This document shows, piece after piece, positions 1 to 3,800 of a stretch of DNA of 24,007 nucleotides. Each line of letters starts with the position of its first letter. The first letter of the stretch is position 1. Source of the DNA: Oligoflexus sp. (GTDB taxonomy: Bacteria > Bdellovibrionota_B > Oligoflexia > Oligoflexales > Oligoflexaceae); contig JBGSTX010000085.1 in the NCBI GenBank assembly GCA_041736305.1, forward strand, positions 1 to 24,007, given 5' to 3'. The notes under the pieces are model-generated. The model saw only the letters and a list, made by a program, of their open reading frames with translations. It was not told the origin of the DNA and did no database searches. The translations under genes and the position numbers were made by a program.

Positions 1-136
1 CTCTTTTAAGAACTGCGATATCATTCAAGCATTTGATGGGTATATGTATGCTTAAGATTATCTCCGATCTGGGAGCAAGATGGCTCCCTATTCCTCCACG
101 CCCTAAAGGACGTGGTTTCCAAGGGAGCAAGAACTG
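1..136 (+). mobile_element. 3' terminal part of an IS200/IS605-superfamily IscB element
   Basis: iscB-like C-terminus; hairpin GGGAGC-AAGATG-GCTCCC (71-88); subterminal hairpin in TTCCT-CCACGCCCTAAAGGACGTGG-TTTCC (stem 96-115); then ...GAACTG|ATGA. The exact boundary at 136 is inferred. Confidence 0.8.
2..55 (+). CDS. iscB: 3' end (last 17 codons) of an RNA-guided endonuclease IscB, truncated by the window edge
   Basis: Frame 2 reads SFKNCDIIQAFDGYMYA*, matching the typical IscB C-terminus (S.K.C..[LI]Q..DGY.Y). It is followed by an IS200/IS605 terminal hairpin, and an omega-RNA 5' end lies at the other window edge. Confidence 0.8.
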   Translation, partial: SFKNCDIIQAFDGYMYA

Positions 137-1117
137 ATGAAGCTTTCAATTCTTGATCTTGCTCTGGTATCCCCTACTCACGGAGTAGCAGCAACTTTTG
201 CAGCGAGTGTTGCTTCTGCAGTGCGTGCCGAAGAACTTGGCTATACCCGCTATTGGTTTGCCGAGCATCACAACATGACCTCAATTGCCTCATCGGCGCC
301 GGCCGTGTTGATCGCGCACCTCGCTGCTCACACGAAAAAAATTCGCCTAGGCTCTGGCGGTATCATGCTGCCCAATCATTCTCCCCTTGTGATCGCCGAG
401 CAGTTTGGAACTTTGGCCTCTTTGCATCCAGGCCGCATCGATCTTGGCCTTGGTCGGGCACCTGGTGGGGACCACAAGGTCTTTGCCGCTCTCCGACGTG
501 ATCCTGCCGCTGCTGAACATTTTCCTCAGGACGTGCTGGAACTGCAGAGATTGCTCGGACCTACATCAAATGAGATGGCCGTAAAAGCTATACCTGGAAC
601 TGGAACCCAGGTTCCTCTCTATATTCTCGGCTCTTCACTTTTTGGAGCTCAGCTAGCCGCTCGCCTCGGTTTACCTTTCGCGTTTGCCTCACATTTTGCA
701 CCGGATGCTCTCGAAGCAGCTATGGAGATCTATCGCGAAGAGTTCCGACCTTCGGAGGCTTGTCCCACGCCTTACGCTATTGCGGGTATGAATGTTATCG
801 CCGCCGATAAGCAGGAAGAAGCCGAGCAACTATTCTATGAAGCATGGCGCCGTATCGCCCGCAGTATAGGTAAAATCGAAAGTTCAGAAAGCGTGGACGA
901 TGGGATTTTGCTCCGATCTCCTGCTGGACAGCATGCAAGGCATATGCTCACCTACGCTGCGGTGGGGGATGGTCCCCGCATAAAGGCCCAGGTAGAGCAA
1001 TTTGCGAAGCAATCCAGAGCGGATGAAATTATCGTCGCCACCCATCTCATTGAACCAAGTACACGTATTCGATCTTATGAAATTCTGGCTCAGGCCATGG
1101 ACTTATCTCCACGTTGA
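137..1117 (+). CDS. LLM class flavin-dependent oxidoreductase (luciferase-like, YhbW-type)
   Basis: Motifs RYWFAEHHN, IRLGSGGIMLPNHSPLVIAEQFGTL, GRIDLGLGRAPG, LGSSLFGAQLAARLGLPFAFASHF. Confidence 0.95.
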   Translation: MKLSILDLALVSPTHGVAATFAASVASAVRAEELGYTRYWFAEHHNMTSIASSAPAVLIAHLAAHTKKIRLGSGGIMLPNHSPLVIAEQFGTLASLHPGRIDLGLGRAPGGDHKVFAALRRDPAAAEHFPQDVLELQRLLGPTSNEMAVKAIPGTGTQVPLYILGSSLFGAQLAARLGLPFAFASHFAPDALEAAMEIYREEFRPSEACPTPYAIAGMNVIAADKQEEAEQLFYEAWRRIARSIGKIESSESVDDGILLRSPAGQHARHMLTYAAVGDGPRIKAQVEQFAKQSRADEIIVATHLIEPSTRIRSYEILAQAMDLSPR

Positions 1118-1285
1118 GCAGGCCACTTCAGAAGGATAAATTTAGCTTTTTCATTTAGCGATTTACGATGATCCTGAGAGATATAGTCCGGGAGAACGAA
1201 AAATGCAGCTCGCAAGAGTTCTCAATTTGGTCTATTCACCTCCTAGGTCTAGACTAACGATAGATTTCCCAATTAAGGAGGCACT

Positions 1286-1561
1286 ATGATTCTCTCAAAA
1301 ATACAAGCTTTAGCAGCCTGCACCCTGGCATCGACGTCTTTGCTCGCGTCGAGCTTGGCCTTCTCGGCAGCTAACGATCGGAATAAAAGACCCAAGCCCG
1401 ACAAGAAGGAAGTTTGGAGCTGTAGGGCCGAAGATTCGTCTGGAAGCGGCCTCTTCTACATCGGTCTAGATGAAGACCGCGGTGCCGCTCGTTCTAAGGC
1501 TCTTGAGACTTGCAACCGCTTTGTCGACAGTTGCTCTGTCAGCTGTGAAAGAAAGCTATAA
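1286..1561 (+). CDS. Small exported Cys-rich protein (DUF4189-like pattern)
   Basis: Strong RBS AAGGAGG, N-terminal signal peptide (..LAFSA), four Cys in the mature part (A.SKALETC...C.VSC). Confidence 0.7.
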   Translation: MILSKIQALAACTLASTSLLASSLAFSAANDRNKRPKPDKKEVWSCRAEDSSGSGLFYIGLDEDRGAARSKALETCNRFVDSCSVSCERKL

Positions 1562-1738
1562 AGCTTGCTTTGCAGCTGCTACTGAGGAGTGATTTTTTGA
1601 TCCAGGCTGGACGAACGAATCCAGCGTGGATACAAGCTCCCTCGCTTGCCTATAGTTTTTACGTCGGTCGTACCATCCCAAGCTACAAGACCAGCCGAAT
1701 CTGCTGTCCGCACTTAAAAATCAAACACAACAAGTCAC

Positions 1739-1763
1739 AGAGGCGAGCTAAAACCCCGCCTCT
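1739..1763 (-). terminator. Probable intrinsic terminator of the lipoprotein pair
   Basis: AGAGGCG-N11-CGCCTCT stem about 35 nt after the stop at 1798, followed on the minus strand by T-rich sequence. Confidence 0.45.
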
Positions 1764-1797
1764 AGCGCGACGAGCGTGGAAGGCAAGAACCTCATGC

Positions 1798-2280
1798 TCA
1801 GTCGATACGGTCGAGGGTACCAAAGGAATTTTCCCAGCCAATTAAACTTGTATGGTCAAGGTTTAAAGAAAATAAAGTCTCTTCTTCCAAGCTCTTCGTC
1901 TCAACACCCTTGAATCTAACAAAACAGCTTCGATCGATTTGATAATCAAGCAAGTAGACTGGCTGCTTACCGGGAACGATAAAAGCGGCCTTCGATGAAT
2001 CGAAAAATTTAATCGTCACGTTCTCATTGGCGAAGCTCAAACCGGACACGTCGGCTATGCAGAGTGGTGTGGTACCTCCGCTGCTGATGCCCCCATCCGC
2101 TTCTCTCATGTCGTCGCTGCGTGTACTCCCCACAACGGAAGGATCTTCCCCGAGAGGAAGAGGCGCGCTTGCTTCTATGCCTGTTTCCTCGATGGGGCCA
2201 GGCATATCGCTATTTTCAGTAGAACGGCTGCAACTGATGAGAAGAAAAGAGAGCAAGGCGAGTGAAAAAGTCTTGAACAT
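1798..2280 (-). CDS. Hypothetical lipoprotein
   Basis: Signal peptide with lipobox LISC, RBS GAGG, low-complexity linker, then a domain similar to 2401..2778. Confidence 0.75.
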   Translation of the reverse strand: MFKTFSLALLSFLLISCSRSTENSDMPGPIEETGIEASAPLPLGEDPSVVGSTRSDDMREADGGISSGGTTPLCIADVSGLSFANENVTIKFFDSSKAAFIVPGKQPVYLLDYQIDRSCFVRFKGVETKSLEEETLFSLNLDHTSLIGWENSFGTLDRID

Positions 2281-2400
2281 AAAATAAACCTCGGCTTGGG
2301 TGAAAGATCTTTTCGATACGACTCTATAGGCCGAGAAAAAGGTGTTTGCAAGAGAGGAAAAAACCGCAATTTGGCTGAATTTTCTCTCTCTTATTTAGGC

Positions 2401-2778
2401 TTACTTAGCGATTTTGAAAACTTCTTCTTCGTTATTCCAGTTTGTCAAAGTCTCGCCTTTGCAGTCTTGGAGAAGGACCAAGCCTTCTTTCAGTCCAGGG
2501 GCAAGATCGTCCGTAAGGGTGGTAAAGCCATTTCCTTCGCTCTTATAGTCGACAACCCAGGCGATATCGTCGCCCAGAACTCTGTAGCTAGCTTTATCCT
2601 TTGAGATAAACGAGATGACACGCACATCGCTTTCAAAGGAGCTTCCAACAAGCTGCTTGCTGCAGAGTGGGACAGAGGTCGCTAAATTATTTTCTTGAGA
2701 TTCCTTGCCACATGCGACGAAAAGCAGAGAAATTGCGACGAGCGAAGCAGATAGATTCCTAAACATATGATCTTCCAT
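2401..2778 (-). CDS. Hypothetical lipoprotein (start possibly ATG at 2766)
   Basis: Lipobox FVAC; shares PLC....G.SF.....I.F....KA...V.G......DY with 1798..2280. Confidence 0.75.
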   Translation of the reverse strand: MEDHMFRNLSASLVAISLLFVACGKESQENNLATSVPLCSKQLVGSSFESDVRVISFISKDKASYRVLGDDIAWVVDYKSEGNGFTTLTDDLAPGLKEGLVLLQDCKGETLTNWNNEEEVFKIAK

Positions 2779-2897
2779 TCTTAGTCTTGCTCCTAGCTTT
2801 TGCCCCTATGGCAGTCGAAGAAGCAAGTTCGATGGTCTATTGCTATCAGCCCCCCAACTCAATTTAAAGATTAATTATCTCATTTATTGATGATATT

Positions 2898-2948
2898 ATA
2901 GAGTTTGACTCTATGTATTCATAATCCATTAATATTATTAGATAATAT
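2898..2948. promoter_or_regulatory. AT-rich divergent promoter region with two perfect 7-3-7 palindromes
   Basis: ATAGAGT-TTG-ACTCTAT (2898-2914, overlapping TTGACT) and ATATTAT-TAG-ATAATAT (2932-2948). Confidence 0.5.
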
Positions 2949-2975
2949 GCCACTTGTGTTAGGAAGGGAGCCGAG

Positions 2976-3800
2976 ATGAATATCTACGATGCCCAATCAT
3001 ACAGGTTTTTTTTCAATGAAGTTCTGCAGGAACAGGCCTGGGGTGCCGTGAAGAAGTTTGCTGAGATCCTTAAATGCCATTCGACCTATGTGTCTCAGGT
3101 CGCTAAGGGAAAGGCGGATCTGAGTACCGAGCAAGCAATCGCGTTTTGCCAACACCTTGAACTGGACTCGGATGCTACCGAGCACTTCCTCGACCTTCTG
3201 CAGGAAGAAAAAGCTGGCAATAGCGAGACTCGCACGTTCTTTAGGCAAAAGATCATTCGGAGAATGGAAGCACGCATGAATATCAAGCGTCGCCTCCAAA
3301 TCAGTGAAAATATGAATAATGAACAAGAAAGCATCTACTACAGCGGGTGGCTTCCGCAGGTGGTTCACATGGCCTGTCAGCTGCCAGGCGAAGGTTCGGC
3401 TGCAGCGATCGCCAAGATTATCAAAGCTGAGCCTGATACCGTCGAAGCAATTCTTCAGGACCTGAATAAGATCGGCGTCATAAAATATAGCAAAGGTAAA
3501 ATCGATATCTTACGTGAATTCGTTCACCTCGGGGAAGAATCATCGAACATTAATCGCTTTCATGTCAACTGGCGCATGAAAACAGCTGCCGAGATCAGTG
3601 CCTCGACGCGTTTGCCGGGCATCCATTATTCTTCCGTGGCAAGCATGTCGGCTGAGACGGAAAAAGAGATCAAAGAGCTCATTCTACGACATGTCCAAGA
3701 TACAAGAAAGCTGATTGCCCCGTCGCCGAGTGAGGCCCTCTACGCATACTGCTTGGATTTCTACCAGCTCACGCATCTCCCGCCAAAAGCTCGAAGATAG
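2976..3800 (+). CDS. TIGR02147 family (DUF4423) protein, putative HTH regulator
   Basis: N-terminal YRFF..FAEILKCHSTYVSQVAKGKADLS.EQA HTH-like region, YYSGW, FHVNWR and C-terminal YAYCLDFY; about 270 aa, typical of the family. Confidence 0.85.
   Translation: MNIYDAQSYRFFFNEVLQEQAWGAVKKFAEILKCHSTYVSQVAKGKADLSTEQAIAFCQHLELDSDATEHFLDLLQEEKAGNSETRTFFRQKIIRRMEARMNIKRRLQISENMNNEQESIYYSGWLPQVVHMACQLPGEGSAAAIAKIIKAEPDTVEAILQDLNKIGVIKYSKGKIDILREFVHLGEESSNINRFHVNWRMKTAAEISASTRLPGIHYSSVASMSAETEKEIKELILRHVQDTRKLIAPSPSEALYAYCLDFYQLTHLPPKARR

Follow-up and report, generated by a model that had tools for sequence, protein, structure and literature searches.

The window analysed here is a 24,007-nucleotide stretch of DNA from Oligoflexus sp. 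(GenBank assembly GCA_041736305.1, contig JBGSTX010000085.1; contig C217 of the 392-contig assembly, genome G000), and its first bases hold the junction between an IscB transposon and a host gene. The contig begins inside a repeated element: the plus strand carries the last 17 codons of iscB and its TAA stop codon (53–55) at positions 1–55, followed at 56–136 by the transposon end distal to iscB, with a subterminal hairpin and an outer stem; read on the minus strand, it corresponds to the left end as defined for TnpA. Read directly from the sequence, positions 121–142 are AAGGGAGCAAGAACTG and then, without interruption, ATGAAG. The pentamer ATGAA (137–141, plus strand; TTCAT on the minus strand) comprises the start codon, plus two bases, of the host gene at 137–1117 (plus strand), which encodes an LLM-class (luciferase-like) flavin oxidoreductase of 326 amino acids. 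This open reading frame (ORF) matches Bac_luciferase (PF00296, E 7.1e-43) from profile position 1 at residue 1, and orthologues with 45–63% identity are present in nine of 30 relatives.

The short coding segment at 2–52 matches the last 17 residues of an IscB C-terminus encoded on contig C109 at 94% (tblastn). Window bases 1–141 recur elsewhere in the assembly: C255 starts with an identical copy, C31 and C30 start with copies of 99% identity and C109:673–814 holds one of 98%, and the likeness among these copies and the window breaks off right after ATGAA. C109:2–724 translates into 241 residues of IscB C-terminus with HNH Pfam matches, ending in AFDGYMYA, and this HNH-bearing piece is the sole form in which the genome's own IscB of this family was assembled. 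The complete element is seen in G006, a closed genome from the same genus, where it measures about 1.75 kb. Its left terminus, GTCAAC..., belongs to a HEARO RNA (RF02033, 130.9 bits) with model position 1 at GUCAAC; its IscB has 427 residues, with RRXRR (1.1e-67) and HNH matches, and is followed by an end of about 90 nt and then by ATGAAG, which starts an endonuclease V gene (nfi). The left end of the window's own copy is found at C12:6230–6460 as a full-model-length match to RF02033 (110.8 bits), and the same model scores above its gathering threshold at seven further places in this genome. Some copies are short, with HEARO joined straight to an end of about 86 nt and no iscB between them. 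Y1 transposase sequences (PF01797) scored above the cut-off at three contig ends (C337, C300 and C53), together with one stop-ridden match; these are fragments, with no intact gene assembled, and are at most candidate sources of a transposase for the ends described here.

No target duplication is seen at the empty sites of the C12/C217 copy and of a copy between yidD and yidC, both of which are described below; the element has subterminal hairpins and lacks terminal inverted repeats, and the hairpin of the end shows compensatory changes. On sequence grounds, window 1–136 belongs to a full-length IscB (ISC/HEARO) transposon of the IS200/IS605 family and forms its iscB-distal end. A first, sequence-only reading of this DNA had placed an IscB element on the 5' side of its target-adjacent motif (TAM), and the components of such an element, namely a HEARO/omega-RNA left end, an IscB with RRXRR and HNH and a subterminal hairpin end, have all been found. 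An assembly artefact was considered and ruled out: the copies have distinct flanks and the end also occurs inside contigs and in the closed genome. In an Rfam scan of window 1–3000 the best match was a sub-threshold HgcC hit on the minus strand (75–192; 20.6 bits against a gathering score of 50, E 0.085), which overlaps the hairpin and was taken as chance.

Genus relatives proved uninformative as an empty allele for the LLM gene: the nearest orthologue is 63% identical, starts with ATGCCA preceded by its own Shine–Dalgarno (SD) sequence and lacks shared upstream synteny. Comparison of window 1–1200 with contigs from public runs provided the empty allele instead. A 2,318-nt contig from run X2 (record 14) matches window 137–1200 with 25 differences and one gap, and the 30 bases that precede position 137 in this contig, TGGAGCTGCTCTCAAGTCAAAGAGGCAAAT, are identical (30/30) to the host flank before GTCAAC on C12, where HEARO starts (C12:6230). 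This identity gives the empty allele as ...AAAGAGGCAAAT followed directly by ATGAAG and makes C12 the left neighbour of C217. In the empty allele a native SD, AGAGG, precedes the start codon by 5 nt; in the present genome this SD and the LLM ATG are held apart by the element, for which G006 suggests a length of about 1.75 kb. Because the upstream gene on C12 runs divergently, the leader that the element occupies is that of LLM itself. The same element end (window 1–141) is also present with other flanks after ATGAA in runs X2, X4 and X5, indicating that the element occupies further sites in related populations and that the LLM insertion is polymorphic.

A second empty site is the yidD–yidC junction, which reads ...GGAGGAGTGGACCTTCC immediately followed by ATGAATTGG in nine of the ten genus relatives examined (partial or truncated matches in G009, G011 and G012 were excluded from this comparison). 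In the empty arrangement yidD and yidC overlap, the stop codon of the former with the start of the latter, and the native SD is located within yidD. At exactly that point the present genome carries an internally deleted remnant of about 130 nt, running from GTCAAT... to ...TTGGAGATGTCTTG and ending in CTTG. This fossil copy constitutes the yidD–yidC spacer (locus L017, G000:C155:7000–10000, at about 1025–1155); the insertion removed the overlapping TGA of yidD, which as a result reads five extra codons to a TAG inside the remnant. The yidC spacer of G013 was tried as a further-decayed fossil and rejected, 202 of 300 shuffles having aligned at least as well.

At the LLM gene, the element is inserted exactly between the native SD and the start codon. 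The two empty sites, LLM and yidC, bear out the earlier claim that the element sits exactly at a host start codon, and in both the host SD has been left on the far side of the element. Native SD-like cores were also identified 5–8 nt before the left junction at C342, C12, C143, G006 and G009:C8, and none was found in the left flanks of C65 and C371. At a further locus (L012, G000:C84:10500–13000, at about 868–983), a 5'-truncated remnant consisting of the last IscB codons and the end fills the whole gap of about 115 nt that separates a gene on the minus strand from a lipoprotein-like gene. The latter starts at the ATGAA of the remnant, so that its entire upstream region is element-derived.

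A search of this genome with a profile of the last ~86 nt of the element (E<1e-3) gave 19 copies, which fall into several subfamilies that are about 80% alike. ATGAA follows 18 of these directly, at the point where likeness ends, and C284, the lone copy without it, is degenerate and partial. The sequence-only reading had expected other copies to precede ATGA in the same way, and this is what the 18 copies do; their likeness runs right up to the pentamer and does not fade well before position 136. Relatives from the family and class were surveyed with a covariance model of the end (R1) that was built without ATGAA, leaving aside the weak hits G007:C389 and G004:C506 and 26 partial hits in G015. 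R1 finds the end in 11 of the 22 genomes of the family. Seventeen of the 23 end copies in relatives are followed by ATGAA and three more by ATGAT, ATGGA or ATGAG, the remaining three being degenerate; all of their flanks differ, and these copies thus represent separate insertions. The copy followed by ATGGA (L076, G009:C81:8955–12040, at about 1290–1590) is internally deleted and lies between a same-strand upstream ORF and a response-regulator gene; its ATGGA may reflect either a relaxed target or mutation after insertion. The partial matches in G015 (26 places, for example L063, L069 and L074, many at contig ends) cover only positions 35–78 of R1, corresponding to the inner hairpin and its loop flanks, and look like a separate repeat family with a shared hairpin core in another genus of the family.

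More distant loci were gathered from IscB homologues at 36–66% identity; L118, with a flank identical to G001:C136, was excluded from the tally. They span Desulfobacterota, Cyanobacteria, Ktedonobacteria, Nitrospirae, Burkholderiales and Methanosarcinales, and in each the R1 end lies just behind iscB. Eighteen such loci were examined, and the end is followed by ATGAA at 11 of them and, less certainly, at one more. ATGAA is the insertion target and, judged from the flanks, appears to be the TAM of IscB as well; in the window, the empty allele and the flanks of the other copies indicate that the pentamer is host-derived.

The ATG of the pentamer opens a long gene-like ORF (at least 97 residues) in nine of the 18 ATGAA-flanked copies in this genome. 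Eight of the nine have a Pfam match from the N-terminus (LLM, a trypsin-like protease, DUF5985, a class-IV aminotransferase, SDR, a histidine kinase, ETF-beta and YidC), and the ninth is the lipoprotein-like ORF, with no Pfam match. Two other ORFs, of 54 and 44 residues, are ambiguous, and the seven remaining copies run into a stop within 8–13 codons. Among the relatives, nine of 17 ATGAA-flanked copies open a long ORF and seven of these are Pfam-supported (SHMT, Fic, endonuclease V, a thioredoxin-reductase-like protein, VIT1, a class-I tRNA synthetase and an AAA ATPase); genes for a response regulator and a pentapeptide protein likewise begin at the copies followed by ATGGA and ATGAG. At the distant loci the corresponding figure is ten of 18, including one ATGAG and one ATGGA, with Pfam support for eight (TsaD, an epimerase, NFACT, AP_endonuc_2, TPR, DctQ, an EF-G-like protein and ABC_tran). 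IscB relatives in other phyla, archaea included, show the same start-codon habit.

A second IscB/HEARO family is present in this genome (C219:26791–27033, C59:3643–3885 and C310:2–215 on the minus strand and C254:3247–3491 on the plus strand), with the left end GTCAATCACCCC and IscB proteins of about 385–397 residues. At C219, about 95 nt past the IscB stop codon, ...GGAGGAGCAAGATTC is followed by ATGGTAAAAG, which opens a long ORF. The second family may have the same start-codon habit at this locus, with a different TAM.

The end in the window contains several complementary segments. The inner hairpin CCACGCCC/GGACGTGG (96–115), with one C–A mismatch, shows compensatory changes in six of its eight pairs, and 91.9% of cells are paired in a 14-copy alignment. 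Around it, the outer stem is formed by GCTCCCT (83–89) as the 5' strand and AGGGAGC (122–128, plus strand) as the 3' strand; across the 14 diverged copies 95.6% of cells are paired, with compensatory changes in two of the five aligned pairs. Within 62–76, CTCC (62–65) pairs with GGAG (72–75) in a helix that is 96.4% paired, and GGGAGC (71–76) is an alternative partner of 83–88. The complementarities noted in the sequence-only reading, of AGGGAGC (122–128) to GCTCCCT (83–89) and of GGGAGC (71–76) to GCTCCC (83–88), are thus real features of the sequence. In a cross-phylum alignment, the outer stem is of a GCGC type in archaeal, Nitrospirae, Ktedonobacteria and Cupriavidus copies.

From these pairings the same reading derived a switch in which the element controls the host gene: the 71–76:83–88 pairing would free the SD-like strand, and the 83–89:122–128 pairing would hide it; one conceivable means of control is the end of iscB translation at 53–55. 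The segments CTCC, GGGAG, CTCCC and GGGAG are indeed present in most copies, the alternative hairpin is possible in most of them and includes six G–U pairs that work only on the RNA-sense strand, and the 71–88 hairpin is transcribed first, so that a kinetic (co-transcriptional) route would be conceivable. However, the alternative helix is paired in 80.5% of cells, compared with 95.6% for the stem that hides the SD, and its closing pair is unpaired in ten of the 14 copies. Blocking the first 18 nt in silico, in imitation of a ribosome ending iscB, frees nothing: the probability of the core being unpaired in the window copy is 0.00 with or without the block. Copies that lack iscB are also found at genes, so iscB translation is not a general trigger, and no ligand or other trigger is evident. 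The part of the earlier proposal in which alternative folds govern accessibility is not supported by these comparisons, and we regard a switch as very improbable.

The 3' strand of the outer stem holds an SD-like GGGAG (123–127) 9 nt before the ATG. An SD core (GGAG, GAGG or AGGA) lies 5–9 nt before the ATG in 12 of the 14 aligned copies, and GAG is invariant in all 14. The host itself makes extensive use of such signals, with a core at 59% of 351 confident starts compared with a background of 12% and a spacing that peaks at 7–8 nt and mostly falls within 5–10 nt; the 16S 3' tail was sought in this assembly and not found. In the yidC fossil, GGAG persists at 8 nt and its stem partner is mismatched. 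The SD-like version of the end is lineage-specific: it occurs in the Oligoflexus subfamilies, in L124 as GGAG and in L129 as a GAGAGG that follows the stem. From these sequences it is plausible, with the balance tilting slightly in favour, that the SD-like core is a host-specific adaptation of the stem sequence; a working ribosome-binding site (RBS) supplied by the element is well motivated and likely, but unproven. The suggestion that the element supplies the RBS of the host gene is accordingly sustained as far as the placement of the core is concerned, but this core also belongs, as the 3' strand, to the conserved outer stem, which related elements build from other sequences, and folding predicts that it is paired in the window copy.

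The overall best explanation, which we consider somewhat better than an even prospect, is a start-codon-docked IscB transposon with an end that carries a replacement SD. ATGAA is the commonest start pentamer in this genome (350 of 2,342 confident ATG starts) and, with intragenic insertions purged, surviving copies would pile up at start codons. The omega-RNA guide would correspond to the host 5' untranslated region (UTR) just left of the element, and host transcription from upstream could yield the guide and the omega-RNA together with iscB mRNA. Translation of the host gene would remain possible through the last ~15 nt of the element, which would supply a GGAG/GAGG core at the right distance. 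This SD-like core doubles as the 3' strand of the outer stem, which is presumably needed by the transposase acting on single-stranded DNA.

Several observations weigh against this explanation. The frequency of copies at start codons was assessed against a crude ORF-based gene call over the 12,570 ATGAA sites in this genome, a heuristic by which 661 sites (5.3%) are start-like and 1,365 intergenic. The nine of 18 copies at starts exceed the expectation from all ATGAA sites (P about 1e-7), but relative to non-disruptive sites only (start-like plus intergenic, of which 33% are start-like) the excess is weak (P 0.10), and an interim pooled count of 16 out of 33 against the same non-disruptive sites gives P 0.04. 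Aimed insertion is therefore not needed to account for the pile-up, which would follow from the use of ATGAA at random together with the purging of intragenic copies, provided that insertion between the RBS and the ATG is tolerated about as well as intergenic insertion. It is this tolerance that is the point needing explanation, above all at yidC, the tRNA synthetase gene, glyA and tsaD. The earlier wording that the element targets start codons is right in that about half of the ATGAA-flanked copies are at gene starts; survival of insertions at a 5-nt motif, and not aiming, may be the cause. Among the distant loci, ten are partial model hits for which the element end was extrapolated, and base-exact abutment is less certain there.

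The remaining counts on this side concern the replacement SD and transcription. C84 and C159 have GAGA in place of the core, and C84 is nonetheless at a gene start. In the window copy, equilibrium folding predicts the core to be fully paired in RNA, with a probability of being unpaired of 0.00; for other subfamilies the same calculation gives 0.03 to 0.6, and about 0.3–0.4 in most. The GCGC-type copies of other phyla have no SD core and several of them are still at gene starts; the end can thus do without an SD, and the habit does not call for one everywhere. As regards transcription, the HEARO part of copies without iscB is closed by a terminator-like hairpin that lies about 90 nt short of the host ATG (L016 1458–1473, minus strand, and L010 235–250, plus strand; a 5-bp GC stem and a T-run), and simple consensus scans, which are weak evidence, detected no sigma-70-like promoter in window 1–400, L016 1300–1850 or L010 1–420.

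The SD-related observations lend themselves to an alternative in which the likeness to an SD is incidental. GGAG/CTCC would then be just the outer-stem sequence by which the transposase of this lineage recognizes the end, and the element, its target and the pile-up would be unchanged. Host genes would be poorly translated or would rely on SD-independent or standby initiation, and the excess at starts would be no more than what purifying selection leaves behind where a 5-nt target happens to read Met-Lys/Asn. Such a view is consistent with the free covariation of the outer stem among lineages, most of which have the GCGC type, with the gene-start copies that have no SD core (L125, L137, L138, L151, L155 and C84), with the predicted pairing of the motif in the window copy and with an excess over non-disruptive sites of just P 0.04–0.10. 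It accords poorly with the reliance of the host on SD sequences and with the displacement of the native SD at LLM and at the essential gene yidC. It also leaves unaccounted for the yidC fossil, which is mostly decayed and yet has kept GGAG at 8 nt despite the mismatch in its stem partner, and the GAG that is invariant in all Oligoflexus subfamilies while adjoining stem pairs vary. We judge incidental likeness to be unlikely, if far from negligible.

A further alternative is suggested by the observations on transcription, namely that the element carries an outward promoter along with the SD and that the host gene is re-expressed from the element and not by read-through. The truncated remnant at C84, which fills the whole 115-nt gap between divergent genes, points in this direction, and the terminator-like hairpin ahead of the end in copies without iscB may limit read-through. 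The consensus scans, having returned no sigma-70-like site in any of the three regions covered, argue against it, and an outward promoter appears improbable. The start-codon-docked transposon with a replacement SD remains the explanation that we prefer.

Parts of this picture have precedents. ISGst5 of Geobacillus stearothermophilus (Meers et al. 2023, 10.1101/2023.03.14.532601) has an IscB with a measured TAM, 5'-TTCAT-3', beside the left end; its guide is encoded outside the element, so that transcription must enter from outside, and iscB tends to be oriented like the gene before it. A position at the end of a host leader agrees with such a dependence on outside transcription. TTCAT is the reverse complement of the ATGAA found here and the omega-RNA scaffold derives from the right end. 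In both systems the TAM and the transposon-encoded motif (TEM) differ at positions 3 and 5 (here TTCAT and TTGAC), and the published protein-less PATE-like derivatives resemble the HEARO-plus-end copies here. The systems differ in that nuclease activity and TAM were measured for ISGst5, whereas here they are predicted from sequence. Within the covered portion of that report the term 'start codon' occurs once, in a figure legend on distances, and 'ribosome binding' nowhere; docking and a replacement SD are not described in it.

The ISC transposons (Kapitonov, Makarova and Koonin 2016, PMC4810608) have N/ATGA targets, examples being ISC1-1_MA (Microcystis) and ISC2-1_MS. They share with the present element a 5'-GT terminus (GTCA...), subterminal hairpins, insertion directly 5' of ATGA, the lack of a target duplication, proven by empty sites, and a non-autonomous nature, with movement presumably effected by a Y1 transposase in trans. 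In contrast, the fifth base, A, is near-invariant here, and half of the ATGAA-flanked copies here open a long ORF; neither 'start codon' nor 'Shine' occurs in the covered text of that paper. The statement in the sequence-only reading that ATGA is a described IscB TAM is supported by these two sources, with N/ATGA for the ISC elements and TTCAT for ISGst5. As for HEARO (RF02033), matches of the left ends to the complete model exceed its gathering score, and model position 1 coincides with the GUCAAC terminus of the element; the family does not cover the opposite end, which is the subject of the present finding.

Safe-site targeting and outward expression signals have familiar examples in Tn7, with its insertion at attTn7 behind glmS, and in promoter-supplying IS elements. 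The present element would resemble them in that the choice of target limits host damage and the element end supplies expression signals to a neighbour. It differs in that the target is 5 nt long and lies inside the translation start region, and in that an RBS, if functional, is supplied and not a promoter. In the literature on IscB, IS605 or HEARO that was covered (the HEARO discovery paper and the supplements of Meers et al. lay outside this coverage), we found no paper on start-codon docking or on an element-supplied RBS. The element, the ATGA target and the TTCAT TAM are already known; the start-codon habit, for which no paper was found, is apparently new.

A wider reading can be put forward more tentatively, and we hold it with some doubt. 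A widespread bacterial and archaeal IscB/HEARO clade would use the TAM ATGAA as a start-codon address and so capture the host promoter, and in SD-dependent hosts the stem of the end would have been reshaped into a replacement SD. Landing between the 5' UTR and the ATG would allow the host promoter to transcribe the external guide, the omega-RNA and iscB, with the host gene as the last cistron, and the replacement SD would make the insertion tolerable even at essential genes (yidC, an ileS-like gene, glyA and tsaD). If this is true, the guide targets the translation start of the host gene itself, and loss of the element exposes the site to cutting by IscB.

IscB is the transposon-borne ancestor of Cas9, and two open questions about it are what holds its elements to certain TAMs and how a guide encoded outside the element comes to be transcribed. 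A TAM identical to the most frequent start pentamer would provide a tangible explanation for the first. The base-exact start-codon copies that extend from Oligoflexus to Methanosarcinales fit such a reading, as does the published orientation bias of iscB. The habit would also explain how a 1.75-kb insertion between the RBS and the ATG of an essential gene can be tolerated. For genome annotation, it means that genes behind such ends have element-derived leaders and that short HEARO-only copies and fossils can make up the whole upstream region of a gene.

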